A DNA stretch of 64,000 nt, taken from the NCBI GenBank assembly GCA_010093605.1, contig MU004190.1, positions 1,372,961 to 1,436,960 of the forward strand, given 5' to 3'. Made by a program: the position numbers and the translations under genes. Each line of letters begins with the position of its first letter. Position 1 is the stretch's first letter. Below the pieces are notes generated by a model. That model ran no database searches. It had not been told where the DNA came from and saw nothing but the letters and a program-made list of their open reading frames with translations. Origin of the DNA: Lophium mytilinum (Eukaryota). Of this stretch, positions 25,459 to 48,202 are shown in pieces.

Positions 25459-27650
25459 TCACCTCCTCGTCTGCACCTCCTCTCCTTCCCTGACCTCTCC
25501 CTCCATCAAGACCTCATGTCCGTCACCCTCCCTCACAAAATTCGACGCAAACCACCCTACAACCGCTACACACCCAAGAGACCACCACGCCAAGCCAACA
25601 ATCCCTATCTGGAGTCCCCTTCCAAAGAGGAACCCACCCATGATCGGACCAATGGTCCTCGTCGCACTCGATACGCTCTGTCCGATGCCGTGCATGGTTC
25701 CCAGCACGCTTGGATGCGGGCAGCAATTGTTCACTAGTATCGTGGTTGCTGGAAGCGCGAATGTCCGCGCGAAGACTTGGATGAACAGCACCACAACGAT
25801 GCCCATCCATACCACGATACCTGCAGCGGGGAGCGGTGACTTGGTGCTTGAGGGCAGAATCGAGAGGTACGGCGCCAGCGCATAGGTGATCGGGAAGATA
25901 GCGAGGCTGAGGCGGTAGGAGAGGGCCGTCCCAAGGCGTGCGCTCAGGCGGGGATAGAGCAGCAGTTGCAGAGTAATGCCAATGAAGCCGAGAATAGCGA
26001 GCGCGATACCGATGCGGGCTGGTGGGAGAGCAAGGCCACCTGTGAAGTGGATAGGAAAGGTCTGCGGCGACTTAGGCGGGACCGGGTGCGCGGGGTCGAA
26101 GCGTGGTGTGGAAAGGAAGATGAACCAGAGGCTGTTGAAGGTGCCGACGTGCATGGCGAGGAGGCCGTGGCATATCAAGGTTACAATGACATTCCTAGTC
26201 CATATTCGTCGGAAGGGAAGTTTGCGGCGGCGAATTGGGGCGAGGAAAGGCTTGTCGGAGTCTATCGCCGATCCATGAGGATTCGCGGACGTCGGCGTGG
26301 ACTGTAGTTCCAAGTCTGTAGAACGAGCAGAATCTGGGGAATCGTCTAGAGGAATAGCTGCGTAGCCGTGATCTGAGGTAGCTCTTCGGCCGCAGAGCAC
26401 GCGCTTTAACCAATTACCAATGCGGAGACCGTAGTCTGCTTTGTGCCTAAGAATCTCGTCGGTTTCTTCTAGGAAGAAAATGACGCCTGTGGCAGAAGCC
26501 AGGAGGAAGGTAGCGCTCATAAGATTGGGGAGGGCGTAAGGATGCTTCATCATCCACTGTACTCCGTCTTTGCCGCCGAAGAATGACTTTGGGCCAAAGA
26601 CGGAAGGATAGCTTCCAACTGGGTCGGCCAATAAACCACCTTGAAATGTGTTAGTCAACGACAAGACGCGGGAAAAGAACCGGACCTACCGAGGACTGGT
26701 CCTATGATGACTCCAATGTTGAATGTCATAGGTAGGATCAAGAAAGCCCTTGATTGGAACTTCTTCTCCTTGATAATTTCAGCAATCATGGTTCGCATGA
26801 CGCCTATGTTGCCATTCAAAGCACCCCCTAAGCATCGAAAAACGACAGCAGCAGCGAAATTCGTGGAAAAGCCAAACCCAATGACGGAAAACATAGTCCC
26901 CAATAGCCCGATTAGCAGGACTCTCTTCCGTCCGCCCCATTCTGAGTCTGCGAAACGACCCCACAGCATCGCCGTTAGAAACTGAGATGCCGGGAAAGCG
27001 GCTTGAATTATACCAGCTTGATACGCAATGGTTGAGTCCGGAAGAGAAGTGTCAAAGGACTTCAATTGGTAATAAATATAGGCACCCAGGGAGGTCTGCG
27101 TTAGAGGCTCTGAGAGTCTCGCTAGAGTAAGAATAAGAAGTTGGTCCTTTCTCGGAAGTGAGCTCCACGTGACTGGCTTTTCTTTCGCAGCACCTGCTCC
27201 TTCATCTTCATCGATGTGAGGTAGTCCGGTTCCCGCTTCAACAATGGGCGCTAATCGATGACGGACGTCCCCGGAAGCCATCGTGGTGGTGTCATCGACA
27301 GGCGTCGAGGTTGGCTGTGACGACGGTTTAGAAGAAGAGAAGACAGATGTGATAAGGCGGCCTAAAGAGCTTCTTGCGCGAGACGGTGCAGCATCGCGAA
27401 GCTGGTGAATGCCGCGAAGGTCTTCCTGGTCGTTCTCGTCACGAAGCAGCGCATGGCTATCGGCTTCGTTCTCGAAAGACGACTGGCTGCTGGAATCCAG
27501 ACTATCTTTCTTCACATTTTTAACATCTACCTCCTTGAAGCTCGGAGCTGGAGAGTTCGGAGTGGTTGTTATCGATTCGGAGTCAAAACCAGCTCTCTCG
27601 ACCACCGGAGAACGCGGGGAAGTGTCGTATGGCACATGATTTTGGTTCAT
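25459..27650 (-). CDS. MFS transporter (YCR023C/ZIFL-like), 2 exons
   Basis: LARLSEPL, WGRFADSEWGGRKRVLL, LNGNIGVMRTMIAE, GPVLG|GLLADP; about 12 hydrophobic segments. Confidence 0.92.
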
Positions 27651-28113
27651 TCAAATAAATTGCAAGGATTCCAAGGTCTAAGAAAGTAGTTCAAATGCAT
27701 ATAATGCGCTTCTGTAGTAATATTTCTCTACACAGTTTTTCTAGGAGGCAGAGAGTTGAGGGAAGGTGGAAGGTGGGATGGCTGACGGCGATTGAGAAAA
27801 AGGCATTGCGGGATGGAGCATCGCCACCATCTTCTTGTAGCTTAGGCTCTTTCATATCGTCTTCTCATTGGTTTCTATGCCGTTGTGGCTTCGCACGCCG
27901 GATTGCTTGTGTGGACGCCGTAGATGTTGTTCAACAACGAAAATGTGCCGACAGATCCGACTTCTTCATCCCCACTTTTGCCCTGACACGTGATCTCCAA
28001 CGTCACCTCAACACATTCTCGCTCAAAACAGCATCCTTTGACCCAAACTCTCAATCTCGCGTGTCTAGACTGTTACATTGGCACTGGCAATTTTTCATCT
28101 GTGCAGAGGCGTT

Positions 28114-28720
28114 TTCCGGCTTTTTCAGTCATGGCAAACGGACACTTCGCCGGCTTCAATCTGAATGCTGTATCTCAGGCCTGATTCAATTCATGAGCTT
28201 CGGACCAAAGCACGATAAACCCCGCTGATTTGAGTGCGCTAGGTTTTACATGGCTAATTCTGCGGGTCGCGAACGTAACATCTATGTCGCGACTTCGAAC
28301 TTCTATTCAGGGGGGTCTTCCGGCTTTTTCAGTCATGGCAAACGAACACTTCGCCGGCTTCAATCTGAATGCTGTACCCTAGGCCTGATTCAATTCATGA
28401 GCTTTGGAACAAAGCACGATAAAGCACGCTGATTTGAGTGCGCTAGGTTTTACATGGCTAATTCTGCGTGTCGCGAATGTGACATCCATGTCGCGACTTC
28501 GAACTTCTATTCGGGGGGTTCTTACTAATTTTCGGCCACAGCAAATAGAAATTCAAATTGCTTCGAAATACGTGCTATAGCCTAGGATATTTCTAATCCT
28601 GCGTGTCTCGAATGTGACATCTATATCGAGATTGCTAACATCTGCTTAGGAGGGTCTTGCTAATGTTTAAACCTTGCCAAATAAAAACTTAAACTGCTTC
28701 GATATGCGTGCTCTAGCAAA
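28114..28720. repeat. ~204-bp tandem repeat: 2 near-identical copies plus shortened degenerate copies
   Basis: tttttcagtcatggcaaacg at 28121 and 28325; gctgatttgagtgcgctaggttttacatggctaattctgcg repeated. Confidence 0.9.
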
Positions 28721-29560
28721 GGCATGTCTAATTTTCGAGCCGCTGACGTATATGCGGGGTATCACGCTAATACACAACGCGCCGGCTACAACATCCAGTC
28801 TGGAATAAACCAGTAGCAAGGGGAACCCTAGACGGTATTATGGGCGTGGAAAAGCATTACCCGAACTGCTTTAATATGAGTAATCTAGCCTATAATATGT
28901 CTAATATCGAGCCGTTAAAGTATAAGCGAATGATAACGGCAATACGCAATGCTCTAACCATTACATCTAGCCTGAAATTGATCAGTACCAGGGGGAACCC
29001 TTGACGGTATCACGCATGTGGAAAAGCAACACCCAAACTGGTTTAACATGAGTGCTCTAGCTTAGCCTATGCCTGATTCCGAGCCGTACACGTACACGTG
29101 AATCACCACCTTAATACGCAGTGCTCTAGCTCTTACATCGAACTTGAGATTAATTAGCATCAAGGGGGACCCCAAACGGTATCACGCACATGGAAATGCA
29201 TCAGATAAGGTACAACTATTTGAGTGCTATCTGAGATCATATCTAACTTCCGAGTATTTAACGTACACATAAATCATCGCGCTAATACCCACTGCTCTAG
29301 CTATTACATCGAACTTGATATTAATTAGTATGAGGGGGAACCCTAAACAGTATCACCCGTATAGAAAAGCATTAGATAGGGTAGAAGTATATAAGGAATA
29401 GCTCGCAGTATGTCTGATTCCCGAGCCATTAACGTGCACGTAAATCATCACGCTATTACACAGTGCTCCAGCTATTACATCCAACCTGAGATTCATTAGT
29501 ATCAGCGGGAACCCTAGACGGTACCACACATATAGAAAAGCATTAGATCGGGTTTCTCTA
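28720..29560. repeat. ~171-bp tandem repeat, 5 diverged copies
   Basis: Core gggAaCCCtagACGGTAt...GAAAAGCA at about 28821, 28991, 29164, 29334, 29506. Confidence 0.9.
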
Positions 29561-29639
29561 TACTGAGGTTCAAGGAAATTTTGTATGTCATTACGCTAAT
29601 TACCGGCTATGCCGCACACGCACCCGCACACGCACACGC

Positions 29640-29876
29640 ACACGCTCGCAGTACACGAAATGGGCCTATTAGGGCCCACACAAAAGCAAAGAGCCGAAAG
29701 ACCCGCACGCAAACACTGGGAATGAGCCTATTAGGGCCCAAACCCAATGCAAAGGGCCGAAAGACCCGCACGAAGCAGCCACACGCAAGGCCGAAACACA
29801 AACAAAAACAGCAAAAAAGGTCAAAAAAGAAAAGAAAATGAAGGAAATGTGACTACGCCGCACCCTGGCCACCCGT
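29640..29876 (-). other. Conserved non-coding 3' element (copy A) with an internal ~62-bp duplication and GC-rich hairpins
   Basis: Reverse complement matches 42952-43140 (gggtggccaggg..agtca.att.cctt; gtttcggcct.gcgtgtgg; tgggccctaataggcYcatt). Confidence 0.85.
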
Positions 29877-29884
29877 ACTCGTGC

Positions 29885-32008
29885 TCAATCGAGCCAGTCG
29901 TCGTCGTCGTCGGGTAGGGGGAATTCCGCCTGCGCCTCCATTACGCGTTGTGCTTCTTCGGCAGAGAGAGTGCTCAGATCCGCACTAAGATTTAGAGGAG
30001 GAGAAGTCGAGCTAGAAGCAGTCATTGTAGAGGGAGCCGTTGTTGTAGAGGAAGCCGTTGTTGGAGAGGGAGCCGTTGTTGAAGAGGGGGACGCCTTCGA
30101 CTTCGGAACCTTCGGCGCAGCTATGATTCTGGGCTTCGTGCAAACGCCTGGTAGCTTCGAGGCCTTGTTGAGCAATGGAATGACTACGTCTAGCTCGTCG
30201 TGCAGCTCTTGGGCAACGGCCTCCCGAGGTTCGGGGAGGTCACCCACTTTGTTGACAAGATCGAACAGACGATAGCGCTCCCAATTGCTCCATGCAAGCT
30301 CCGCTTCGTTCAGCGGGATCTTGTCCGCCTGGAGCAACTGCTTGGTGTCGCGGAGAATTGTCACCAGGCTCCGGCCTGCAGTACGGTAGTCTACGCCATC
30401 TCTGATCATGGTCTCGATACTCCGGCAATAGGAGGTCACACGGGTGCCTTTACGTCCGTAGTAGTCTAGATTATCATCATGTTGCTTGACTTCGGCCGTG
30501 GTGTACTGTGCAACTGTCGTACCGAACGGTTGCGACGCGCTCTGCGGTTGTGAGACCGCTGGCTGACTGAAAGCTGGCGCAATACCAGCATTCGTCTGAC
30601 TCTGTTGACCAACTGGAAGGATGGGTTGAGGGAGTGCTGAGGATTGCTGCTGCTGTTGCTGTGCTGCGGTGGCTTGGGTGGCCTGAAGAACTGGTTGTGA
30701 TACAGTCGTTTGTTGGCTGAGTTGAGGGAAGCTGAGAGAAGCCGTCGGAGGAGGCTGTTGCTGCTGCGGAGGAGGCTGTTGTTGCGGCGGAGGAGGCCGT
30801 TGTTGCTGCGCTGGCTCATCAATGTCCATTGGATCATCGAAATCCATTGGATCTTCGTGAATCATGTCAGAGGAAGCGCTATCCATATTGCTGCTAACTT
30901 GCTGAGCAGGGGGGGATTCAGAAATGGGAGGGGCAGGGGCCGGAACTGATGGAATGTTCTGCCCAGTCAATGCGAGCGCGGTGGGTGGATGTGCACCAAG
31001 ATTGGATTGCATCGTTGGATGGATCTGAAACCCTTCCGAGCCCGAGGTCGTAGTCCAGGTCCCGAACACGTGGTTGTCTGGCTTGAGAGAGCAAAGTCCA
31101 GAGGTAGAAACAGCCCTGGCATGGTGCTGGCCAAGATCTTGTAGGGCTTGCAGCAGGGGTTGGGCACGTTGGTCGTCTGCGTTGTTTGAGATGGTCTTGA
31201 AGAGTGTGTCCAGGGACTGCCATGGCCAATTCAGCCACTCTAGCTCAGCCGAGTTGAGGTCGATCAGGTCGCTCTCTAGCCTCGTGACCGCCGCCGTAAT
31301 CGCAGTGGTCAGCATGTACATCGACCAAGTACAGTCTTGGCCGCGACCGAAGCAGTTATCGAAGATGACGAGCTGTTCAAGCACATGATGCCTCTTAGCA
31401 GCGACCCAGTGCAACGACTTCACGCGATCCTTCTTCCTCTGTTGTTCACGCAGTCTCTCCCCGAGGGAGGGCACGGAGACTGGGGACGGGCCAAGAAGAG
31501 TCTGAGAGGATGGCGAGGGAGAGGCGGTGTAGCACTGCGCGCGTAGGCCCACATTGACGCTCTTCGGATACCAGCACAGCGTACCAACTACGTATCGGTT
31601 AAGGTGCCTGTAGCTATCCCAATCTATATCCTGGTTAGGCATTGATTCACCACATAGAAAAGAATCCGCGACATACCTATGTTTCCGGCGGCGTCTTGAT
31701 GGTTCATCCACTCTACGGCCTCGTTGCCGGTGAGATTGAGGATACGGCTCATCTCCATGACTAGATACATCGGGAAGGTCTGGAAAAGCCCTGACGCCTT
31801 GGGCAGTCCCATCATCGCCCAGTGAAATGCCTGCTCGAAGGTGGGTTTGACAGACTCCGTGATGCCGTAGAGGCCTCCGAACAACGAGAGCTCCTGTAAC
31901 GATGCGTTAGTCTTGACGTTGCGACAGCGCATCGGCGAGTGACCTATCGCGACGCGAAGGGGCTCGCGCATCAAAAGAGAGCCACGGGTAGGTTGCACTT
32001 ACAGTCAT
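29885..32008 (-). CDS. Orphan protein A: two copies of an unassigned ~100-aa helical domain with a Q/P-rich linker; multi-exon
   Basis: ATG ACT|gtaagt micro-exon at 32008; exon ELSLFGGLYG..PTFEQA; long ORF with DLIDLNSAELEWLNW..SGLCS and DKIPLNEAELAWSNW..LPGVCT. Confidence 0.75.
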
Positions 32009-32747
32009 TGCGACGGTGATGGCGGTGGATCGACGGAGGGAGGAGGTGTTGTGGTGCGGTAGCTGTTGGCTCGCGGTGAAGTAAGGTTGAAGTGGAGGTT
32101 ACGCAGCAGGTTGGCTATGCAGTTGATGGAGCAGGAAGCGGGTTGGAGCTGTGCAGGGTTGGAGATGGTGAGGTGGTTGTCTCGTCGACTTACGAGGTTG
32201 GTGTGTGTGGAAAGGTTTCGTTCGTCGGCGTAGAGCTGGCTGTTTATCTGTGGGCGAAGGCGGGCGCCGGGCTGCGCGGGCCGGGGGGACGGGAGGTGCA
32301 CGGCTGGAGACGGATAGCAGACGGCGTTGAGGCTGCTCGGTTCACATTCACCTGCTGCTGGTTGCACGTGATATAAAAGAGGTTGAGAGAAGGGGGTCAC
32401 GTGTCCTCCACGACTGCCACGCCAGGCCCACCATCTTATCAGCTTCGTCCTGGCTGCCGTCGAAAGTGTATATAGAAAGAGATGAAAGATTTAACATGTA
32501 ATTGTATAATGACTTACTTCTGCTATAACTTACCTTACCTTCAACGACCAGGTGTGCAAAAAGCGGAGGAAACGTCACCGAATATGGACCAATTGAGACA
32601 ACATAGAACAATCTAGGTACCTACAAACATAGGCTGGAAGTTCCTTATCAAACCACAAATGCGGTCAAAGAAACACTGCTTCTACATCACGTTCCAGTTG
32701 GGCATATGAAGACTGCAACCGTGCAAAGCGTATACTAATGTGTCAGG

Positions 32748-33200
32748 AGTCTACACACACGAAAATGGCATTGCTTATGCTGCAATTTTGCTCTCTCGAT
32801 AGCACTGTCAGGAGTAGCCTCGCGGGCTGTTAGCCGGTTGGTCAAACAGCAGCCTGATTTCCACCGCACCGACGTCTCCACCTTGACGCGAGTCTCAAAG
32901 AGTCTACACACACGACATGGCATTGCTTACGCTTCATTCTTGCTCTCTCGATAGCACTGTCAGGAGTGGCCCCGCGGGCTGGTAGCCGGCTGGTCAAACA
33001 GCAGCCTGATTTCCACTGCACCGACGTCTCCACCTTGTTGCGAGTCTCAAAGAATCTAGACACACGACATGGCATTGCTTGCGCTTCCTTCTTGCTCTCT
33101 CGATAGCACTGTCAGGGGTGGCCCCGCGGGCTAGTAGTCGGCTGGTCAAACAGCAGCCTGATTTCTACTGTATCAACGTCCACATCTTGTTGCGAGTCTC
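32748..33200. repeat. ~152-bp tandem repeat, 3 copies
   Basis: gtcaaacagcagcctgattt at 32841, 32993, 33145; gctctctcgatagcactgtcagg three times. Confidence 0.93.
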
Positions 33201-34890
33201 GAAGACCCATCAGGGTACCTCATACAGTGGCAAGTATCTCTAATTTCTTTTGCTTAAAATGTCATGCTAAATCGGACTCCGTGGCTCCCGCACTCACCGA
33301 TGAAGCAGCTTCAGCACGCTGAATCGTTTCTTGTCCCGGAGACTTGCTATATTGACGCCGTCCCTCAAAGTGAGACCCCTATCATGGCTCTACCTTGTTC
33401 CTTGGGGACAACACGGAACTAGGGCTGCATCACGCGGAATGCGATCCACAAGTGGTGCATTTTGCGATGGGGTTTTGAGCCTATCTTCGCAAAATAAAGG
33501 CGCCTGAGGAAGTAAGAGGGCCTGTGAGGCCGACTGGAAGGGGGGGGGCCGCAGAGTAGAACTTTCTCCAGGGCATCTATATATGCGTAAAGAGCTGAAG
33601 TTGAGAGGTCACGATAAAAGGATGAGACGCGACGAAAGCAAAGATGCGTGTCGTCTAGAGCGCCGCGGAGTTAGTCCCACCCCTATTCCGAGTCTAGTCC
33701 AAACGCGGTCTAATGCCCTAAGCTAGTGGTCGCCTACCAAACTAGTCTATTAAGGTACTGTACTGTCGTACAAAGGTAACGTCGCAATATCGTCTGATGT
33801 GCTCGGGGTCATAATGATCAATGCATTTGCATGCACACGAAGGACTCACGAGACATCTGACAGGACCAAATTGAAGTTGTCATCATGCAATGTCGTAGTC
33901 TTGATGCGGTCCGTATGCTCATAAGGCTGGAGTAGCAAAGGCCGAATGTAGATGCCGCTCATCTAGCGTACAGGGCTGGGGGCCCAAGAATAGCGGCAAA
34001 GGGGGGGAGCAGCCTCAATCCATGCCGCCAATCAAGATTCGGTCCGTTGATTTAAAAGCTTAGCTTTCCAACCCGCCACTTCGGTGGCGCCACAGCTGAC
34101 AGTTCATTTCGCCCCACCGCAAGAGACTGGGGAATTTGCTTCTCGAATATCTCTCTATCCACCGTTGGTCATTAACGCCGTCAGCCCGCCATGAGCCCAA
34201 GAATATGTACCTACAAAGAAGCACTGCCTAGCAAACAACTGCTAGGTATCGTTCATGATCCTCCGTCTTGCGATCTATCCTCCAGCCGGAGATCGATCCC
34301 CCAGCTTACTATTGATCTTTCAGCGTCACTATTGGTCCTACCGGCTACGGTTGCGCCTTTCTCGGCTTCGGCTACCGCTACCTCAGCGCGCACTTGAGGA
34401 TGTACGGTGTGAGAGTGGCATTACTCCTGACTGGGGAGCCACTGGCGGGGGGCCTTGAAGATGCTTAGCCTCCTCCTCAACCTATCATGGAGCGTTATCT
34501 CGTCAGGCCGCCCGGATGTTCTCGCCGATAGTGTAAACAGGCATTTATATGAAGACGCCTGATCCTAATTGGCGATGTTCTGACAAGCGGTATCCTATCC
34601 TGGAGCAGGTGCCTAGGTATAGGGCTCCTAGTGCTAGATCTTCATTTCTCGTGGTGGCTTAGCAGTGATCTTCCGTTCCTATGCGGGTGGGTTGCACTAT
34701 GCAGAGCCTCTTGCGTCAAGGGTATGGCCTGTTCGTCGATGGGGGCTGTACGTCTCTAAATCTTACGTATGAGTATATAGCTGTGAAGAATCCCTATCAA
34801 AGTATTTGGCCATCACATCATTCCAACTCATAATCTCCTATCTCGTCTACCTTTTCCTTCAGACGTTCACTATCCAAGCAACCGTTTACA

Positions 34891-35851
34891 ATGAAGTTCA
34901 GCAGCACTCTTCTGGCGCTCGCCTCAACCGCCACATTCGTTCATGGTTTCTGCGACAATGAAGACTACGACCATGACATCCTAAACATATCCAAGGCAGA
35001 AATGCACGGCGACAGGGCCAGGGCGCGCCGGGCTTTCGCACCTATTGAAGTCGATCTATATTACCATCTGATTGTCAAGGAAAACCCAATGCCCCCCCAG
35101 TTCACGTGGGACGGTCTGTGGAAACAGATTGATTATATGAAAGCAGCATATAAACCCTACGGAATCACTTTCAACACAAAACCCGTAGACATCATTGTCA
35201 ACGCGGCCTGGGCCGACGACATCAACTACAAGGTGCCAGCGGATTTTAAGAAGGTCCACAAAGGAGGCTATAATGCGGTCAACATATATGCCGGACAAGG
35301 CTACACGAGCGGCGTGTGCTCTTTCCCCGCGGGCATGGAGGCCGACAAGCTCGTGCCGCTTACCCAGGACGATGTCACTTTCGATGGGTGCCATGTAACT
35401 TTGGGTGCTGCGACGAACCCAATCAGCGGAACTCCGTCCCACGAAGGTGAGTTCAACAACTCCCGTTTTTTGATGCATCTTGCTGACTTTCCCGTGATTG
35501 AAGTTGGCCATTGGTTCGGATTGTTCCATCCTTTCCAAGGCGGCTGCACCGAGCCCAACGACTATTGTGACGATACTCCTCAGCAGGCGAAGGCTTCCTA
35601 CTCGCACGAGACCGTGACGGGTAACAAGAACACCTGCCCGGCTGTGAACACTTGCCCCAACAACCCTGGCAATGACAACGTCTTCAACTTTGTAAGTTCT
35701 CCCATGCAGCGATTCCAAATCATTACAAGTCGCTAACGTCGCCTGGCAGATGGACTACACCGACTGCTCCCACGAGTTCACTGCTCAGCAGGGATGGCGC
35801 ATGAACACCGTCTTCGATAAATACCGCCGCAACAGGCAAGTCGCTGCATAA
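34891..35851 (+). CDS. Secreted M43 (pappalysin/ulilysin-type) zinc metalloprotease, 3 exons
   Basis: Signal peptide MKFSSTLLALASTATFVHG; HE|VGHWFGLFHPFQGGC split by an intron; DYCDDTP; Met-turn NF|MDYTDC. Confidence 0.9.
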
Positions 35852-36549
35852 AAACATCATGCATACCATTGAGCAACTGTCTGTCGGTTCAGTTGACCGA
35901 GTCTCTGTATATACTTGGACACACTCCTTTGGAAGATACAGTTTGGGCTGCATTTTGATGGCATTCAGAAGCGAGGCATTTGGAAGCGAAGCATTTGGAC
36001 GCGAGGTATTTGATATTTGATAAACACAAGGCCCCTTCGCCACGAAAAGGCTATGCAGTAATAGAAGTTTGGAGAATTCTCAATTCGAACATTGCTTCAT
36101 GTTCTTGCTTTGTTCGACTTTTGATCTTGATGACGTCGGATTTGGTACTCCGTATTGTCCGATTGCTCTCCGCTATGTTTTGGTGCTAGGCAATGTCATC
36201 TCGCATTGATGGATCAACGTATCGTACTGAGCGGTTGCGATCTTGTAATTTATTAGAATACAAAACCCTGCGAGGTGAGGCTGGAGAAACCAGGGGGCAG
36301 GGGTACCACATACTTCGTAGCATTTAATGCCACAACTAATGGGTTAGCGAATTACCCCGCCTACGTCGCTCGATCTCCTCCTTTTCCTCACTTTAGCTTC
36401 CAGGTACTAAGCCTCTCCATCAGGTCGGCTTAGGAGTATATCATTTAGACTTCTCCTCCAAAGGCATTGCATCCCTGTTGTTTTAGTCGGCCGAGTAACG
36501 AGATTCAGTCAAGATTCTACGCCCGGGAGCTTCTCCCAACCCTGGAACA

Positions 36550-37659
36550 ATGTCCGAACCACAAAGATTACGAGTTGGCGTCATCGGAGCAGGAGAAGTT
36601 GCTCAAGTGATCCATCTTCCTGTATTGGCTCTCCTGTTTCATCCCTACTCTGTCACGATAATCTGCGACATCTCCGCGAAGAACGCCTCACATTGTGCCG
36701 CAAAATTCCATATCTCTAAGTTTACTACCTCTGCTGCGGATGTATATACAAGCCCAGACGTTGATATCGTCTTCATTCTTACCTCGGACGAGTTTCATGC
36801 TGAGTATGCAATCGCGGCGCTGAAAGCTGGCAAGCACGTTATGGTTGAGAAGCCAATTTCACTCTCTATGCAATCTGCAAAGAGGATTATCGATGCAGAG
36901 AAAGAAGCAGGAGGGCCAAGGGTTTTCGTAGGGTACATGAGACGCTATGCACCAAGCTTCGTGCAAGCATTCAAGAGAGAAGTCGCAGCAATACCCCGAG
37001 TGCTTTACGCTAGATCCCGAGATTTCAGCGGACCAAACGCACAATTCGTGTCGCAATCCGGCACTTTCCAGGTGCAGAATACGGACTTCCCTCCCGGAGC
37101 AGGTGAGGAGCGGACGAAACGGCTCAATGATCTTTTCGCAGAGGCTTTAGAGGGCCGAGAAGTCACGCCGGAGAAGAAGAAGTACTGCCGCTTCCTAGGA
37201 AGTCTGGGTTCGCATGACATTTCTCTCCTACGAGAAACTCTTGGGTTCCCCGAGTCTGTTGCTGGCGTCTCTGTCAATGAGCCATTCTATTCGGCCATCT
37301 TCAATTACAAGAACAAATCGGGCGAGCCGTTTGCAGTCACTTACGAGAGCGGCATCGATGGAGTGCCGAACTTCGACGCGCACCTTGCGGTCTATGGCGA
37401 GAAGAAACGAGTATCAATACAGTACCCATCTCCCTACGTGAAAGGACTTCCCATCATAGTCAAAGTCGACGAGCTGAATGAGCATGGCGAGACGCAAACG
37501 AGAGAGATATTGTCATCATACGAGGACGCGTATACGGCTGAGTTGAAGGAGCTTCACGCATGTATCACGCAGGGAAAGACGATCAAGACGTCTGCGGTGG
37601 ACGCGCTAGAGGATTTGACATTATACGACATGATGTACAAGAAGTATGAGGGAATTTGA
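36550..37659 (+). CDS. Gfo/Idh/MocA-family NAD(P)-dependent oxidoreductase (inositol dehydrogenase-like), intronless
   Basis: RVGVIGAGEVAQ, AGKHVMVEKP, VGYMRRY, LGSHD. Confidence 0.92.
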   Translation: MSEPQRLRVGVIGAGEVAQVIHLPVLALLFHPYSVTIICDISAKNASHCAAKFHISKFTTSAADVYTSPDVDIVFILTSDEFHAEYAIAALKAGKHVMVEKPISLSMQSAKRIIDAEKEAGGPRVFVGYMRRYAPSFVQAFKREVAAIPRVLYARSRDFSGPNAQFVSQSGTFQVQNTDFPPGAGEERTKRLNDLFAEALEGREVTPEKKKYCRFLGSLGSHDISLLRETLGFPESVAGVSVNEPFYSAIFNYKNKSGEPFAVTYESGIDGVPNFDAHLAVYGEKKRVSIQYPSPYVKGLPIIVKVDELNEHGETQTREILSSYEDAYTAELKELHACITQGKTIKTSAVDALEDLTLYDMMYKKYEGI

Positions 37660-38861
37660 TGATTGCCACTGGAAACCTCGGCAAGCTAATAAAATATATG
37701 GATGCATCGTAGCCTTCAACCCCACTCGCAGGCTTCTATATGGTAGAGCGTATTGGCAACCCTGACAGCTACCGAAACGTGCTGCCGTCGTTATCAGGTC
37801 CATTCATCCGACAAGCATATGTCCCTTGTTGATATGTCGTCTTACTTGCTGTATGCTAGCCTAAAGCTGACAGCCTCGTTGGTTGATGTTCATTGTTCAT
37901 TTACTTTCCATCCTCATGAACCTTTTCTAGTGCGGCGACTGAAGTCTTCCTTCCAATTTTGTTGACCTAATTTTATCATTGATTACAGCCTCATAATGGC
38001 GTTGAATTGGAACAATCACCTACGGAAATCAAGACTGGTAGCAAACAAGGCGCCCACGTATTTGTGCACAGTGTTTGCGTTTTACCCTATATCCAAGCTC
38101 TACGGCCTAAAGTTTAAGCAAAGGAGTGCCCAGGTTTATGTCCTAGTAAAGCAAGTAACATTCTTATCCAAATCTAATTTTAACTACACGCTCTCTTTGC
38201 ATATATGCTATCAAGTAACTAGAAGCAATTGAGAGGGCTTTGGACGAGGGTGGTGTGTAGCATGTGATCCCCTGACCTCAAACCTCTATCAAATATACAA
38301 CGATGCTAAGCTTGTTAACGACGCTTCCCAACAGGTGTGTAACGTGTGTATAGAAACTCTACAATCCAGTCCGGGTTGGCAGTGCTGTCGGCATGGCGTA
38401 ACTACGTCTTCTGCCTCGCGGCTCATAACTAGCGTTCGTCAACATTCACCAACTTTACACCGCCCCGGTCTCTACTTTCCTCACGCCTTTCAACTCCCGC
38501 GCTGCTCGGTCATCCGCCTCCAACCGTTCACTCCCACCCAGCCGGCTCCTCCGCACGTGCACGCAGCAGAGCGTCCTGGCCTCCCGCCGTAGCCTCCGGC
38601 CGTCCACCTCACACAGACATAAAAGGCTAGCTCGATCACTCACTCACCAACCAAACCTTCTTCTCCACCACCGCAACCGGTACAGCATCACACACCCACC
38701 ACCGCATCAACTCACAACCTGCATCCTCCACAGTCTTCATCAGCACACAGCTTCTATCACTGACAGTTCTTGCGCAACCTCGTGTCTCGCTGTATCTACC
38801 GGCTTCTCGAAATACCACAACCCTCCAACATCTTTCACCTCCCTCAATCCCCACCGACATC

Positions 38862-41800
38862 ATGGTCGTAAGTGAACCCCCCATCCGCCCTAGTCGCCAC
38901 CCGCTATGATCTCCTCCTTCGCCTCGCGACTATGTGCTCAAGGAAACGAATACTAACTCGACCTTGTAGTACTCCTACGGTCGCTCCATGGACCACAAGA
39001 ACCCTACGCTCGAACAATACTTTGGATTAGGGCCGAAGACCACTTGGGAGCAGGCGCGCCTGCTCGCCAACGATGGTATCAGAGACTACAGCTTCTCTGA
39101 CGACCATTACCTGGCGCTGGTCATGGCCAAGACGTTGGATCGCGATAGTAAGAGTATCTGGCGCGAACACGACCTAAGGAAGTCTATCGTCTTGCATCGT
39201 GACGCGGGATACGACGTGAGCGCCATCGCTACTCGACACAATGGTAGGCCAGAGACCCCTCTCCATGCTCATTGTATTTCTCTAATAAAGAAAAGTGACC
39301 GAGGAGGACGTCCGATCCGTCTACGCCTGCCCGGGAATTGCAACAACCAATGGTAAGTCATGCCATCTCCTCTCTCAATTCAAAACAACTCGGTCGTAAG
39401 TCTGCGCACATGGATTCACCACTGCTTGGCTCGCGCCTTGATCACTCGCCACCACTGTAAGGGGTGGCCTAGCTGTACAGTGACCAGTCGGTCAAGAGGC
39501 ATCCCAATTTGCACTGCTTGAACATCAACATCGTTCTTCGAATTTGAGACCCGGTCAGGGTACACCAAGCAGTAGCGAACGAGTGTCCGCAGACTTTTCG
39601 CCTGTCTCTGATCTCTCCGCTCCAGCACATTCGTACTAACTCTCGAGCGATTTAGGTGGTCTCGCAGTCGATCCCATCGGGCATCGCCCAAATCCACACG
39701 GATCTTCCCCATATCCGCCCGCTACGACGCCAATGCAGCCGTCCGACCCGCCCTCACCCTCGCCCACTCAGCCTGCCATGCAAGACCTTGGAAGTATGGG
39801 GCGTCATAAAGTGACCAGGGATGAGGAACCACCCGTCGGCCCAACTGGACAGTCGCTCGGACTCCAAGCTTCCGTAGATGGTTTGGGTAAGTTCTATTCA
39901 CCTATACTACCAGCTAGCGCCTTCTAACGCTATATGATCAGGATATACAGCGGCACTTGGCCAAGCGCAGAGGTCTAAACAGGACAAGAAAGACCACAAG
40001 ACACTCCTAAAAGGCCTAAAGGAGAAGAAAGGCTGGCTCGAAGAACGTCTTGGACTCTTCGTTAAGATGATGAGTCAGAAGAGTGATTGCAGCAATGTTG
40101 TGCATGAGCTGTACGGCTTGTTCGAGAGGGTCAACGGGTACTTCGAAAAAGACCCGATTCCGCTCAATGCGGACGATATTGACTGGATAGGCTGGCCCGT
40201 CGAGGATCTAGACGGTTACTTCAAGGTGTTACTAGAGGCGGCGCAGTCAGGGTGTCGCTGGGTTGAACCGGCTGCTCTAGAGCTACAAAAGCTGGGAGGA
40301 TATCTCAACACAGCGCAGACTACCCCTGGCGTTTGTTCTCTCCGCGAGGGAGCCCTGCCGTCCCTCGGATCCTATCCGACACAGGCTGCGCAACAAGCCC
40401 CAATCGCCCAACCTCCCTCGGTTCTGAACAGCTCACAATCGTCGTCAAGTACGAATATCTTCGGGTTTCTGGCCAAGCCACAGCATGCGCCCTCAGTCCT
40501 GCAAACTTCGCAGCCAGCGCCCGCCTCCAATCCCTTCGTCAATCTGACGAATCCGCAGAATGCTCTTTTGTCGTCTATGCTGGAGCAGCAACCGGCACAT
40601 TGCCCCGATACCATGGAGGGCATTGACACAACGCCCCATTTCCCCGACCACAACAGCCGCTTGAAGTGGGTCCAAGATACACACCAGGAGGTCATGGTCG
40701 AGGCGAGCAAGCTGTATGACGCGCTCGGCACGACCGGAGGATGCGAAGCTCAACTGAGTCGTCCGAAGGAGCTGTTTGACCAAGTCAGCAGCGCTCTCGA
40801 GGGAGACACCGTTCCGATGAACAACGGCGAGCTCGCATGGATCAGGTGGGATACCAACTCTCTCCAACTCTTGCTGAACAAGATGTTATCCATTGCGGCA
40901 CCCCGCTCGCAGGTCTTCTGCGACACTGGAAGTGCCCTTGAAATGCTCTTGGCGCGTCTGGAGCAAGCTTCTAGAACCCCAGGTATCTGCTCGATGGGAG
41001 GCGGCCCGCAGCCACCACAGGGAGCTCCTAGCACTTTCGGACAGCCCTCGCAGCAGCCACAGGCTGCGCAGAACTCGCCCTTCTCCAACCCGCCTTCAGG
41101 TCAATTGGGGTCTTCGCCGTTTGGTTCTTCTGCCTTTGGACAGCCCTCACAGCAGCCACAAGCTGCTCAAATCTCGCCCTTTGCCAATCTGAGGTCAGGT
41201 CCCCTGGGCTCTTCTCCATTTGGACAGCAGACCCAGCAGCAACCGTCATCAGTGGCTCAATCTGCATCCCCATTTGGCGGACTGGGTCAATCCAACACCA
41301 GTCCTTCCCCCTTCGGCCCATCGATGGCCCCCCAGCAGCCGAGCGTGTTCCAACAGACTCAGCAGCAACCGTCATCGATGGTTCAACCCGCGAACCCATT
41401 TGGCGGACTGGGTCTAACCAATGCCGCTCCTTCACCATTTGGTCAAGCAACAGCCTCGCAGCAGTCGAGCGGATTCCAGCTGCACTCCAAGCAAATCTCG
41501 CCGGAGGATGCCCACAAGGCATTCCTCGACTACGCGAAGCTGAAGTCCAAGGACATCAAGGACAAAAGCCAAAAGGTCATGAATGGCATTAACGACTGCA
41601 AGCCATATAGCTCGGCACTCCGCAACCTGTTGACTTACCTTCAGGACTGCAGGAAAAGGCTTGTCGACGACCCGACACCGCTCAACAAGGGTGACGTTAA
41701 ATACATTCGCTGGAACATCGACGATCTCCTAACTTTGGGCCGGGGTCTCCAAGACTTCGGTGATAAAAGCGATGCCAATGTCGGAAAGACGCTGAGTGAA

Positions 41801-42889
41801 CTCTCTCAGCTCATTCCACGGTTGCAAACCGCGCGCCAGACGCCAGGCGTGTCTGTCCTAGCATCGCAGCGCGCGCCGACGCAGCCAAGCTCCTCCCACG
41901 TATCAGGGAGCCTTCCACCTCGCAATGCCGGACAGCCGTTTTCCAGGATGGGAGCCTCTGCGGCGCCTTCGAGCAGCCTCCGTAACGCGCCGCCCCTTAG
42001 CAACACGCCTTCTCCCTTCCCCCAGCCGACATCTTCTGGTGGTCCTCCCAGGAACTTTGGACAAGGCTTCAACATGCAGGGCATGGCGGCACAGAGTGGG
42101 CAGGGTTCCACCCCGAGCCTGGGCAATATGCCGGCTCTTGGGAGCAAGCCCACTCGTAGCTTGCGCGACATGCCCGCTCTCTCTTCAGAGTAGTACGAAC
42201 TGTAAGTCAGCCGCTTTTTTCAACTCTCGTTCTTCTTCGACTCCTAGGATTGTAGCTAAGACTAGTAACAGTTCCTTGAGTCTATCGCCGACGCGGAGTG
42301 CGCTGGCGGAGGGGAGTGTGAGTGCGCAGAATGAACCCAATCAAGTTTCAAAAAGTCGGAGCGCCTTAGGCGCACCATAGCCGAAACAGAAAACCCAAAA
42401 ACACAGCAAAAGCACCCCAAAAAAACAGCAAAAGCAGAAAACCCAAAAACAGCAACCAATTGCAAGTCTATCCAGGGGAGCACCGTCATCGAAGGGAAAA
42501 TCGATTGCTCCACCTCCTACACCGAAATTGAATGCACCGAAGGAGGGTTCCGTGCGGAAGACCGTCGTTGACGAGGATTACAACGATCGTACACCAGACG
42601 GAGATGCTTTGGCCGAGGCTATGAAAAAAATGGGGGTGAAAGAAGCGAAGAAGGCGCCAAAGAAGGTGCTAGAAAAGGCGCCAATGAAGGCACCAGATAC
42701 AGATGGGTTAACTGCGAGCATGAACAACGTGGCGGTCAAGCCCCTATATGTCGCGAAAGGGGAGCTCGTGCAGCCTCACGAGCTGAAGAAGCGCGAACGC
42801 AAGCCTGCTTTCAATGTGAAATTGGTATGTCATCCGCGGTTGTATTGTAGGGTTTCCATTCTAACTTCACATAGCTTGGTGCGAGTTAA
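38862..42889 (+). CDS. Orphan protein B, paralog of A: three copies of the same domain, an FG-rich linker and a Lys-rich tail; in-frame TAG at 42191-42193
   Basis: ATG GTC|gtaagt micro-exon; TTWEQA exon; DPIPLNADDIDWIGW..TPGVCS, DTVPMNNGELAWIRW..TPGICS, DPTPLNKGDVKYIRW..TPGVSV; downstream exons 42272-42317, 42381-42824 and 42875-42889 splice in phase. Confidence 0.7.
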
Positions 42890-42951
42890 GGCCGCGTAGG
42901 CATCTGGATGGCCTCGATGGGCTTCAATTAGATAGAGCGCGAGGGCAAAAA

Positions 42952-43140
42952 GGGGTGGCCAGGGCGAGGGGCAGTCATATTCCCTTTCCTTTCTTTTTCC
43001 CTTCTTTACTTTTCTGTCTTTTGGTGCTGCGTTCTATTGCGTTTCGGCCTCGCGTGTGGTAGGGGGAGGCGTGCGGCTCTAAGGGCCTTGTGTGTTATAT
43101 GGGCCCTAATAGGCTCATTTCGAGTATTGCGAGTGTGTGT
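42952..43140 (+). other. Conserved non-coding 3' element (copy B)
   Basis: Inverted homolog of 29640-29876. Confidence 0.85.
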
Positions 43141-43254
43141 CCCTTTTGTGCATCGTGTCCCTATTTGGGCTCGATGAGAGTACTGCGAGCGGGTGCGGCA
43201 TGGCGGAATACTGGCGTTGCGAGATACCCAATGATTATGAACCACAAAATTGCT

Positions 43255-44200
43255 ACAAACTATCCATTGCTTTTCCACATACGTGATACTGTCTAGAGTT
43301 CCCCCTGATCCCACTTGATTTTAAGCCGATGTAATAGCTAGAGCGTTGTGAAATAGATGGTGGTCAATCTACATGCGCCCTAGATCCGTTTCTCCAAAAC
43401 CCCAGGGTATTGGAAATCACAGCTCTCAAGTTTAAGCTTTCGATCTGTTGCATTGATACTATCATGACGCCGTTTGAGGTACTCCACAGCATCCTTAAAA
43501 TTATGATACATTAATTTGACGGACCTCAGAAAACTGCAGGGCCACGCCCTTTGGAAGCAAAAATGTTTGTGCGGACGAACACTAAACTCTTCACTCTAGA
43601 ATCTAGGATGGTAGTGCTCATAGCCTATGAATATAGCTTCCCCTTCTACGAGAATGTCGTTGTGCTAGCACCGTCTGAAGTGCCCTAAATGATTCTTCCT
43701 AATCTGACACTCATGTTCTTGACTAACCTTATGTATTGCCGGTCAGTTTTTAGTGGTGGCAGATACTTGTATGTCAGCATGCGCTTGACTTTTTGCGCCT
43801 GATTTAGAACGTATCAGAAGTCCCAGCTCATGAATGGGGTCTTCTGTTTTACGGTATTGTCAACGTTTTAGCACCGTCTGAAGCGCCTCAGATCCTCTAT
43901 TAATATTGACAGGTACCGTTTTGCCCAGCCTTATATCTTGTCGGCCCTCTTTTGGCGATGATAGAAAAGTACGCATGGACAATCATTTAACTTCCTATTC
44001 TTGCTACAAATCGCTTATTAGGGCTGGCTTATAATCCTAGGTTCATCTTTAATGATAGTGCCGTGGTCGTATCGCCGCCAGGAGTGCCTCAACGCCCTTA
44101 CCTAAATTTATATACTGTGGCTTTGACGGACCTTATACCTCGTTGGGCCGCCTCTGGCGGTGCCAATAAGATGTGCGCCTATTCTACTTAACTTAGGGAT
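43255..44200. repeat. Degenerate ~190-202 bp tandem array (~5 units); inverted relative of the 171-bp array
   Basis: 43265-43350 is the reverse complement of the 171-bp unit; related cores at about 43275, 43466, 43667, 43870, 44071 (agcaccgtctgaag.gcc twice). Confidence 0.75.
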
Positions 44201-44329
44201 ACGATCGGCGATACGTCTCAGATTACAACAGAACTGGCTTAAATTCGGACACTAGAGCGAGCCAGCGTTTAGAACTTTATTCACTCAACTCTATGGCGAG
44301 AAGGTTTCATAGTCCCCATTCCATGGACC

Positions 44330-44780
44330 TTTACATTGCTCATTGATTTTTTCATGCTTGATAGCGTTGTAAGAGATGGCCCAGCTAGAAGATTCCAGGT
44401 GAGTCAAGAGGTAGTCCCACACAGAGTGCCAATGGATGCTCTTGCGGAAAACCTGCGCAACTACGCCGCCCATTTAGATCGACCAACTGGCCACAAGTGG
44501 GTCATTGAAGGATATGCCAACTACACGGTGGCACTCATTTTGAAGATCTTCCAAGTCGAGTTCAAGTCGGAACCACCGGCAAAAGTCTCGACACATACGG
44601 TATGGGAAATCATGCAGTTCTGTATCAAGTACGATGTATACACGGGCGCTTTCAAACCATGGTTCAGGTACTGGTATCGCTGTGAGATGTGCGACGATGA
44701 AGGAGACTTGGAGATTGTCTAGTTTCAATTGTGTTCACCTTCACATCATGTTCGGAGAAAGGACGGTTTCATGTGAAGGA
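44330..44780 (+). pseudogene. Probable degenerate fungal BTB/POZ-like gene fragment
   Basis: RRFQVSQE..VALILKIF..VWEIMQFCIKYD..FKPWF..WY, then in-frame TAG followed by FQLCSPSHH..GF; no clear ATG. Confidence 0.5.
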
Positions 44781-45869
44781 AGAAGAGCAAATCAAGTTGA
44801 CGGCGTCGTTTTTCGCAGAGTCGTCTGCGTCGGCCTGAATGAACCAGTCTCTCGCACGCTTTACTACTTAATAGCGCTATGAGGGGGACCTTAGCTGCTA
44901 TTTACTCCGTAGGTCAAAAGAAGGTCAATCTCTACTGCGTTGACCTTGACATCATGTTCACAGCTTCTGCACGCATGATACCGCTGTGTGGAGAAGCTCA
45001 ACCAGTAAGTTGCCTAGCAGCCAAGCGGTGGTCTATTTTCCAGTGCGTTAAACTTTGCACTATGTTGTTTACTCTTGCGTGCTTGATGCCATCGTTTGGA
45101 ATAGCTTGGCTGGCAGGAAGTTCGTTAGCCAAGAGGAAGCACACCATCGATGCCAGAGATGAAACCCCTTGAAATTCTCTCCGAACTCATACACTCGGAT
45201 CTTCCCTCGGTCAAGCCGTAATGCTGCTTGCTCGACAACATCGCCAGGAGTACCCCAGCCAGCACGTAGCTAGCCCGTCAAAAGGAATCCTAATCTCCAT
45301 CCCAAAGAATCTGACTCTAGTGTAGTCTTCTTAAGACCATCCGCCCGTATATACCGTCGTCCAAGTCGAGTACTTGCTCGCTCGATACAACCGTCAGGAT
45401 AGTCTCTGCAAGACGGTGGCTAATCAGTCACACGGTAGTCTCATTTCCAATGAATGGAAGTAAGGATAGGCATGTGGATATACGTCTGCATAAACTTCAC
45501 TATTTCTCACTCAATATCGCTGTCAGGAGCAGCCTAGCTAGTACGAGGCTGTGCAGCCAAGGGAAGTCTGACTTGCAATGCATTGAAAAGGGCATAGGCA
45601 CACAGATACACGACTACTCAGGCTCCGCTCTTGAGTACACAACACCACCGTCGGGAGTAGCTTAACTATTAGGTAGCCAGGCAGCCAAAAGGTAAGCCGA
45701 TCTCAAGTGCATTGATTCATACAGTTAAATTAATCGCAAGCTAATATACGACCGCTCAGACTCCAAGCTTGCCACATTGATACCATCGTTCAGGAATATG
45801 CTGGTAAAAGGGTTGCTAGTCAGTCCAAAGATAGCCTCATTTAAACGCTCCGACCACCTGCACTCCCCC

Positions 45870-46190: not shown

Positions 46191-48202
46191 TTTGATGATT
46201 TGAATTGAATATGCGGGACTGTAGCGGATGGAAAGGATCCGAGGGATATGTTGGACTCAACTGCTTGGATTTGAGGTCGTTGGGGTTTCAGGCGTAATGG
46301 CGGTCGTCGGTTTTATGAATTGGAGTTTCTGACGTCATGCATGGGAAACTACTTCGCGCGTCATCACGATGGACTTGCTTGAAACCCCAAATGCCCCTAA
46401 TCAGTGAGATGAATTCGTCGGGTCGTCCCGAAGCTAAGTTGCTTCTTACGGTGAATAGTGGACAATACAAAGTGTGGAGGGAGTGATTGTTCACTCCGCT
46501 TCAGACTACTATGCTAAGAGACTTCCTACCATGCTCTTAATAAACAGTTCCATCACTTTTGGCTACATAGAAACTTTAGTATCTTTCTAGTACTCTCAAC
46601 GCCCCCGTCTTGAATCGTTCGTCACTCTTGTTCACTGAAACCAGTGAAATAATAGAGTCATGTTCGAATCACGTGACTAGGTTTCCAGCTCCCATAACAC
46701 TGTTCGAACACTCTCGTCTACGTTCGCTAGCGACACCTCCTTCCTATGCAGCCCGGCAATTGAGTTCAATTTCCAAAGGAACGATATCGAATGGCTTTCT
46801 GACCCTCTACGCTTCTTTTCCTAATCACAATTTCAAGCTTCGTAAAATTGCGTTCCAGATAGTATCCATGCATTTGTATACTAAGGGGCAGCGAGAATGC
46901 ACATTAAATTGACCGAGAGGCGAGAGGTTGCCCTCGTTCAAGATCACCCCTTATCCTATGCCCCCATCTGGAGTGTCGAGCAATAGTATGCCAAAATCGA
47001 GTTCAAATCGCACGGACTGGCTCCACTTTATTCATCTTACCACACCAAGATCATCTCCAGTTTCATGGTCCAATCTGGGGGGTCGAGCGATAGTAAGCCA
47101 AAACCGAGTGCGAATCGCACGGACTGGCCCCACTTTATACATTTCAACATCGCAAGATCTAGCTCCAACTCCCCATGAAGGCTTCGCATAGACGTAGTCG
47201 AACCTCTCCGCCTCCTCTCCGAAACATATAAGAGACGGAGAATATGCTTTTGCTCATCCCAGCCATGAATCCATCTTCGGCTAGCTGTTGATCCTCCACT
47301 TCGCAACCATGTCAAGCTCTGAACTTCCGGTGAGGGGAAGGTTTATATACCCGTCGACGAATTTCCGGGAGAATGTTGCTCCTCTTTCCGAGCCTAGTGG
47401 TGGCCAATTGGGATGCTCACGATCACCGGATTGTCACATGGTTATAAGGTTTAGTGAGCTTTTCAGGGTTTGTTATCCCCGTTGGCGGCTATGTATGAAG
47501 ATTATTGCCTCCAAAATTATATCTAGAGTTAGTACGCTGGCCTTGAAAGGGTGAGCAGAAGCCACTCAGCCGTCTACAACACAGTGCAAACCTGAATGCA
47601 CCCACTCCTCCTAAGTCTTCGGCGCGAGACCCGAAATCAGATGTCAAGATTGAGAGCATGGAGAAGACTGTGAGAAGATAATGGACAAAATTATTTCAGA
47701 GAAAGGATGATGAATAATATGAAAGATCAGCGATGACTATCAAACAAAATAGAGATACTCTGGAGTAAGATTCCTCAATAGTGAACGGCATCATTAGAGA
47801 TAGGAGAAAGCAATCATGCCTCAGCCACACGCTACTACAAAACGGCGCCATTCGGTTCAAGGTTCCTTGGAGTTGATGATGCACATCGAGAACGCCTGAT
47901 TGAGGTTGCAAACATGTGAGTCTTCTGCGCGATTTTGAATACCACCAGTCTCTCCGCCACCAGCAACACCGGCCATGAGGCAAGTGTAGCTCTCTTTTCA
48001 AACGTCTTCTCGACCGTCAACACCTTGCTGAATCCCATTCAAGCTCAAGAGATCTTGCCTTTACACCACAGTCCAGCTGATTTACAGCTCGCACGTGCCT
48101 AGAATAGTAAGCAAACCCGTGACCAGATATCAGTAATGACAGGGGTCCCCAAGAAAGTGTAGCTTATCGTTCAACAATCGAGGTATTCTACCTATTTCTA
48201 TC

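Follow-up and report, generated by a model that had tools for sequence, protein, structure and literature searches.

Helical bundles that serve as docking surfaces are known from several protein families. The p130Cas FAT-like bundles (four helices) and the BAG domains (three helices) present a surface that binds a helical motif or a partner domain, and the TFIIS N-terminal domains (TND/LW), likewise helical bundles, recognize short motifs within disordered transcription factors. The fungal MP1 and Mp4p mannoproteins, which are secreted, carry tandem five-helix domains that hold arachidonic acid, and the HsbA-type family of these bundles has a Pfam model. Among proteins with characteristic unfolded segments, FG nucleoporins show FG repeats in low-charge spacers, and an acidic C-terminus with tryptophan is the element by which nucleation-promoting factors contact the Arp2/3 complex. 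Here we analyze a stretch of 64,000 nucleotides (nt) of Lophium mytilinum (assembly GCA_010093605.1, contig MU004190.1, positions 1,372,961 to 1,436,960 of the forward strand; called the window below and numbered from its first letter). Five copies of a domain of about 125 amino acids (aa) are found in this 64-kb window, two in a gene on the reverse strand (gene A) and three in a gene on the forward strand (gene B). The five copies very probably form a real folded domain family that is new. Its novelty lies in the sequence, its helical fold is generic, and its setting, folded modules on disordered linkers, is a familiar type of protein.

The repeated domain in genes A and B

The two copies of gene A were located on the reverse strand at 31082-31450 (A1, 123 aa) and 30134-30508 (A2, 125 aa), and those of gene B on the forward strand at 39968-40348 (B1, 127 aa), 40625-40999 (B2, the middle copy, 125 aa) and 41489-41866 (B3, 126 aa). 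With a hidden Markov model (HMM) their i-Evalues were, in the same order, 1.3e-44, 5.4e-44, 9.2e-46, 4.5e-43 and 3.3e-44. In a leave-one-out test, in which an HMM built from four window copies was scored on the fifth, the copies obtained 66.2 (A1), 69.4 (A2), 74.8 (B1), 70.7 (B2) and 69.0 bits (B3), against 4.6 to 11.3 bits for the best of 500 shuffles made per copy. A BLASTP comparison of the two proteins paired copies of A with copies of B at E values of 6e-18, 7e-12, 1e-10 and 3e-4, so that by both tests the alignment among the copies is significant far beyond chance. To look for further copies, an HMM of all known copies was run against the 1633 six-frame stop-to-stop open reading frames (ORFs) of at least 25 aa in the window; no sixth copy was found, as no ORF beyond the five fell below E = 2.5. 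The initial annotation of this DNA, made from its letters, had described a repeated domain with two copies in one protein and three in another, which these leave-one-out, BLASTP and six-frame results confirm. The unit is longer than the roughly 100 aa first assigned to it, since all copies measure 123 to 127 aa. The interval then given for the domain, 29885..41860, does hold all the copies, but it corresponds to two genes, one on each strand, that are separated by two unrelated genes.

The signature proposed at that stage, H..L..K..D[CY]..L..D.[IVT]P[LM]N..[ED]..W..W..L..A..PG.C, can be seen in the alignments of the copies, the five-row and the 11-row alignments among them. Six columns were invariant in an alignment of eight copies (D64, N69, W78, L83, A116 and G121), and in copy B3 the terminal cysteine is replaced by serine. 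A metal site or a disulfide formed by the conserved histidine and cysteine was considered and dropped because the histidine is present in eight and the terminal cysteine in nine of ten full copies; in addition, the central cysteine alternates with tyrosine and shows no covariation with the terminal cysteine.

Predicted fold and searches for known families

Copy A1 was modelled with AlphaFold2, the other four window copies serving as the alignment. The resulting model is compact, with a mean predicted local distance difference test (pLDDT) of 89.7 and a predicted template modelling score (pTM) of 0.81, and it places helices at residues 2-21, 23-38, 44-63, 70-76, 80-91 and 97-118. The domain is thus predicted to be a compact six-helix bundle, in agreement with the amphipathic helical bundle supposed in the initial annotation. 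The most conserved segment, D-x-x-P-L-N-x-x-E-x-x-W-x-x-W, spans the loop 64-69, the short helix 70-76 and the next turn. In the model N69 lies just ahead of helix 70-76 and E72 three residues inside it, an arrangement that would fit a helix N-capping box, and the T-P-G-x-C motif comes after the last helix. Given this putative capping box, the two tryptophans and the position of T-P-G-x-C at the last helix, the conserved signature can be read as largely fold-determining.

None of the searches made assigned the domain to a described family. A Pfam-A hmmscan gave no family for proteins A and B (P0001 and P0002) at E ≤ 1 or for P0004, the orthologue of B introduced below, at E ≤ 10. Eight single copies searched at E ≤ 10 hit just four unrelated Pfam families, with one member each, at E values of 0.057 to 0.23. 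The best result of a sequence profile search of the PDB was a designed protein (E 0.0059), and Foldseek gave no match in the PDB at E ≤ 0.001; its top rows were designed bundles, BAG domains and p130Cas FAT-like bundles, all at E ≥ 0.29. In a feature search of the ESM Atlas the best score was 0.76, for copy A2, and nothing usable was obtained for the N-terminal region of the proteins. The earlier statement that no family could be recognized therefore stands, there being no confident match by Pfam, PDB sequence profile or Foldseek. The comparison with HeLo bundles suggested with it is supported by none of the searches: the HeLo and HeLo-like Pfam models had no match among the eight copies at E ≤ 10 or among the whole proteins at E ≤ 1 to 10. 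HeLo chains were also absent among the structure matches listed, an absence that does not by itself exclude a family.

Relatives and history of the copies

The five-copy profile was compared by hmmsearch with 1,835,955,588 representative proteins at E ≤ 0.001, and five of these matched: P0005, P0003, P0004, P0007 and P0006. The orthologue of A is P0005, a protein of 808 aa with three copies from Mytilinidion resinicola (BDZ99DRAFT_551300), and that of B is P0004, from the same species, with 626 aa and two copies (BDZ99DRAFT_527504). P0003 is a public model of B itself, and the metagenome fragment P0007, of 87 aa, spans the latter half of the domain. P0006, a repetitive bacterial-type protein of 705 aa (E 1.3e-5), was discarded as spurious, its hhalign probability being 1%. 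An eight-row profile run against the longer proteins of a collection of 5.8 billion found P0003, P0004 and P0005 again and nothing more, and protein A was absent among the database matches of both profile searches. Among metagenome contigs, 429 pattern matches with P0007 and 210 with a three-row alignment included no relative. The family appears lineage-restricted, being found in two fungal genomes in these predicted-protein collections. A literature search found neither Mytilinidion accession, and none of the papers listed for M. resinicola treats these proteins, as judged by titles and abstract openings.

Orthologous copies are 50-61% identical and align over their full length, whereas the linkers between them align in part only. 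The first copies of P0005 and P0004 share 61% identity with A1 and 57% with B1, respectively; A and P0005 also share the N-terminus, the last copy and an acidic-tryptophan tail. A maximum-likelihood tree built from the ten full copies grouped the four first copies together (support 90/97) and likewise the four last copies (79/91). Support for the orthologue pairs ranged from 72/76 to 100/98, with 99/98 for A2 and the last copy of P0005 and 93/86 for B3 and the last copy of P0004. The middle copies, B2 and copy 2 of P0005, have their best identity with each other (33%) and were placed between the first and the last groups. From these relationships, A and B would be paralogues that arose by a duplication older than the split of the two species. 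The simplest reading is that their ancestor had three copies, the middle one having later been lost in A of the window, and that the B model of M. resinicola does not contain it either. The initial annotation had taken the variable copy number as a sign of a modular domain. The difference of two against three copies is real, but because the copies group by position, a three-copy ancestor with loss of the middle copy accounts for the tree better than free shuffling of modules.

Structure of genes A and B

Few long bacterial-type ORFs occur in the region, where the reading frames are interrupted by introns. The closest relatives in the databases are proteins of M. resinicola, a Dothideomycete, which marks the window as nuclear DNA of a fungus. 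Gene A (29885..32008, reverse strand) has three exons at 32008-32003, 31893-31677 and 31623-29885, the last including the stop codon, and encodes 653 aa; its splice sites were read from the sequence and the joined frame is open. We compared the window over 28500-43500 with the contigs of one public run, labelled "RNA?" and called X1 here. Six joints with GT..AG or CT..AC ends were found over this range, and because its contigs carry such joints X1 contains spliced RNA. Both genes are covered by X1 contigs and splicing was confirmed for A, whose two introns, 31894-32002 (109 nt) and 31624-31676 (53 nt), were both seen as CT..AC joints.

For gene B (38988..42193, forward strand; 931 aa) four exons were inferred at 38988-39243, 39296-39352, 39656-39886 and 39942-42193, stop codon included. 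Homology with P0004 at its N-terminus, together with GT..AG sites, gave the positions of exons 1 to 3, and the frame of the corrected model is open. The X1 contigs cover its coding region at a low depth of about 5, with no joint over the three inferred introns. The public model P0003 is an N-terminally truncated B that begins at a methionine inside copy B2, which leaves 458 of about 931 aa. With A not among the database matches, the models given here would amount to a correction of the annotation of both genes.

At their N-termini, proteins A and B have in common a conserved region some 70-100 residues long, encoded in A by exon 2 (31677..31893, reverse strand), which is homologous to the N-terminus of B. 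When A exon 2, B exon 1, P0004 and P0005 were aligned, the invariant columns were G13, L14, A23, L42, M46, L50 and W58. The AlphaFold2 model of B exon 1 is of moderate confidence (pLDDT 67.3) and shows four helices; Foldseek found nothing for it, the best E value being 3.7. A weak lead came from the ESM Atlas, where the predicted model of P0004, at residues 19 to 113 approximately, resembled DUF1670 and helix-turn-helix clusters with template modelling (TM) scores of 0.51-0.55. No helix-turn-helix family was matched in Pfam, B exon 1 and P0004 giving no family at all at E ≤ 10, and a piece of the upstream frame of A matched just Mdv1 at E 0.1. Residues 1-200 of P0004 matched only P0004 itself in the collection of 5.8 billion proteins.

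The copies are separated by linkers rich in glutamine (Q), proline (P) and serine (S), as had been noted from the letters of this DNA. The linker of gene A (30509..31081, reverse strand) contains 19% Q, 17% P and 12% S and an acidic patch, DPMDFDDPMDIDEP, and it sits where the orthologue P0005 has its middle copy. The linker between B2 and B3 (41006..41485, forward strand) contains 20% Q, 18% S and 17% P. Several short motifs are found outside the domain copies. NHVFGTW comes after the first copy of A, NIFG[FY]LAKPQ occurs in the linkers of B, and a linker island, GSMG[KRH][YH].VT[KR][DE], is common to B of the window and both Mytilinidion proteins.

Possible function of the two proteins

We favor the explanation, to which we give a probability of about 45% as a whole, that A and B are lineage-restricted multivalent scaffolds with docking bundles. 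Both proteins would act as "beads-on-a-string", each bundle docking a partner protein or a short linear motif, and the sticky linkers with their conserved short motifs would supply extra weak contacts. The proteins could thereby assemble, or enter a larger complex or condensate. Taken by itself, the proposal of a docking role for the bundle within a multivalent scaffold stands at even odds. As to location, a nuclear or transcriptional role is our first choice but a more doubtful guess, suggested by the weak Myb/homeodomain-like character of the N-terminus, the Q/P-rich linkers and the acidic-hydrophobic patches. The boldest form of the idea is unlikely: that the bundle fold was born within this taxon, either de novo or by divergence beyond recognition, and builds with the FG/Q-rich linkers a lineage-specific nuclear body or condensate in a small branch of the Dothideomycetes, where the first, middle and last bundles recruit different clients.

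Several observations weigh against the scaffold explanation or the history on which it draws. The bundle has generic structural matches, which indicate no function, and the most conserved motif can be explained by the requirements of the fold alone. On our reading of the alignment, protein A seems to be without the second helix-turn-helix-like stretch of B. The middle copies formed one clade in 24% of the bootstrap trees and the branch of B2 is long (1.83), and an annotation error, not a loss, could explain why the B model of M. resinicola has no middle copy. Finally, the narrow distribution was established on predicted proteomes, where A of the window is missing and B is present just as a truncated model; relatives elsewhere may be unannotated, since the window's own genes are so poorly represented in these collections.

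The first of the other explanations concerns the linker between B2 and B3, which holds eight FG motifs, mostly SPFG, in 160 aa. This linker is rich in Q, S, P and glycine and has one arginine as its sole charged residue (histidine not counted; net charge +1), an uncharged composition typical of cohesive FG domains. It is encoded by tandem DNA repeats, 1.9 copies of a 99-nt unit (41034-41223) and 2.0 copies of a 126-nt unit (41228-41478), whose units match at 76-79%. The corresponding linker of P0004 has kept three FG motifs, and because it has just these three we conclude that the FG array is growing, through tandem DNA duplication, in the lineage of the window. The FG linker might then be the working part of an FG-type condensate or of a protein related to nuclear transport, being cohesive and either binding transport receptors or forming a gel, with the bundles as anchors or spacers. 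We regard this as unlikely: protein A has just two FG motifs in its linker of 189 aa, neither a nucleoporin family nor an anchoring domain was detected by Pfam, and the family was found in two fungal genomes only whereas the components of the nuclear pore are widely conserved. Moreover, what A and B have in common are the bundles, 50-61% identical between orthologues, and not the FG stretch.

About equally unlikely is that the bundles have no specific ligand and are stable spacers or fast-evolving filler, the activity residing in the short linear motifs and the tails. The motif islands conserved within the linkers would suit this explanation, as would the fold-determining reading of the conserved positions (N-x-x-E, the two tryptophans and T-P-G). 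One of the three bundles also proved dispensable in A of the window, and the B model of M. resinicola lacks one too. However, it is the orthologous bundles that align over their full length and the linkers that do so in part, and the first and last copies have retained their position-specific identity from a time before the genes duplicated, which suggests that each copy is under its own constraint.

A role as endocytic or actin-patch adaptors is improbable. It was considered on account of the C-terminal tail of protein A, DDDDDWLD (29888..29911, reverse strand, from the translation). The end of the protein reads LPDDDDDWLD and is kept in P0005 as LPDDDDDDFWKD, ending in DDDDDDFWKD. Such a tail might contact Arp2/3 or the appendage of an adaptor. 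NPF or FG-like motifs, with one NPF in each of two linkers of B, might be recognized by EH-type domains, leaving the bundles to hold cargo or coat partners. Pfam, however, detected no WH2 or any other actin or endocytosis family, B is without the tail, and there are two NPF motifs only. The tail does not discriminate between explanations, since tails of this acidic-aromatic kind typify transcription activation regions as well.

More improbable still are bundles that hold a hydrophobic ligand in the manner of the MP1/Mp4p domains. Rows for these proteins did appear among the structural matches, but at ranks 17, 27 and 32 among generic helical matches and in a range common for bundles; no Pfam match was obtained, and on inspection the N-termini of A and B lack a hydrophobic stretch resembling a signal peptide. 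A HeLo-like pore-forming cell-death domain can be practically dismissed, for the two have in common that they are helical bundles in fungi and nothing further, the window domain is internal, repeated and accompanied by hydrophilic linkers, there is no Pfam match, and no amyloid or NLR partner gene was evident among the neighbors tested.

If the multivalent scaffold is the correct explanation, A and B offer a small and clean case in which a new folded module and sticky linkers gave rise to multivalent proteins in a narrow fungal lineage, and the family would be a new entry for the domain databases. If a scaffold born within the taxon were true as well, it would be a rare and tractable example of a recent invention, with valency shifting by loss of bundles and tandem expansion of the FG array. 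Lineage-restricted helical domains with no assigned function are common in fungal genomes; for this reason, and because nothing yet ties the domain to a process of general interest, its wider significance is limited.

Other features of the locus

Genes A and B lie about 7 kb apart in divergent orientation, and between them are an M43-peptidase-like gene and a GFO/IDH/MocA oxidoreductase gene. The latter (36410-38219; ORF 36550-37659; PF01408, E 1.4e-25) has a contig depth of 181 in X1, by far the highest over 28500-43500. Scans for Rfam families (27000-45000) and for tRNA genes found nothing.

Downstream of B, an X1 contig of 1215 nt (41895-43229) joins 41895-42201, 42272-42823 and 42874-43229 through GT..AG introns, at a depth of 18.5 compared with about 5 for gene B. 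Its first intron opens 8 nt past the TAG stop of B. In the spliced transcript the frame of B continues to a second TAG at 42378-42380 and is followed by a lysine-rich frame of 152 codons, whose first ATG, at 42621, would give a protein of 72 aa; no Pfam family was found for it. This transcript may be a long spliced 3' untranslated region (UTR) of B or an overlapping separate gene. Readthrough or alternative splicing of B into the lysine-rich ORF was not adopted because the joint that was seen lies past the stop of B. Another contig, with a depth of 3.7 and a shorter side of 30 letters, skips 87 nt within copy B2 (40771-40859) with CT..AC ends, which suggests a spliced antisense RNA. By our count, the initial methionine of P0003, near 40814, falls within the skipped stretch.

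The 3' flanks of the two genes resemble each other. The stretch 29639-29874, 3' of the stop of A, is similar to 42953-43139, about 760 nt past the stop of B, in inverted orientation; BLASTN gave pieces of 70-79% identity, and when 29600-29884 was aligned colinearly with 42940-43160 the mean column identity was 74%. The motif GGGCCCTAATAGGC occurs in the window at 29664, 29726 and 43101 only, and both similar stretches lie within transcribed DNA. As this non-coding similarity contrasts with the approximately 17-29% identity of the domain copies at the protein level, it may represent a repeat element inserted later or a conserved 3'-UTR element.

Tandem repeats of medium period are unusually abundant in the intergenic DNA around gene A. 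Past the 3' end of A, a unit of 171-172 nt is repeated about five times in tandem (28735-29589), with one inverted unit at 43260-43356, past the similar flank stretch on the B side, and identities of 70-79%; the RNA depth is 0 over most of the array. Upstream of A, three tandem units of 152 nt (32747-33205) match at 90%, and this array is transcribed, as it is covered by an X1 contig of 877 nt (32744-33620) with a depth of 10.1. Further arrays in 28114-28732 and 46966-47167 consist of two units of 204 nt (93% matching), 2.1 units of 135 nt and 1.9 units of 107 nt.

Comparison with described systems

Among the top rows of the Foldseek comparison are docking bundles of the p130Cas FAT-like and BAG types (3t6g_B, probability 0.82 and TM score 0.47; 5w93, probability 0.77-0.80; 4hwi_B, probability 0.82). 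These matches have E ≥ 0.29, root-mean-square deviations of 7-13 and identities of 6-12%, and no sequence relation was found. The TFIIS N-terminal domain had no Pfam match in the window proteins, P0004 or the single copies, and the window domain likewise shows no sequence match to the family model of the HsbA-type bundles of MP1/Mp4p. Of the features of FG nucleoporins, FG repeats in a low-charge spacer are present in the linker of B alone and not in that of A, and neither a pore-anchoring or nucleoporin domain (Pfam) nor a wide conservation (search of 1.84 billion proteins) was found. Concerning the Arp2/3 nucleation-promoting factors, A and P0005 resemble them, on inspection, in the acidic C-terminus with tryptophan, and Pfam detected in A no WH2 motif, which in those factors lies upstream of the tail. 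The M. resinicola orthologues share with A and B the domain copies, the N-terminal region and the linker motifs, the acidic-tryptophan tail being common to A and P0005 only. Between the two species the copy numbers are swapped, with three copies in A and two in B of M. resinicola against two in A and three in B of the window.

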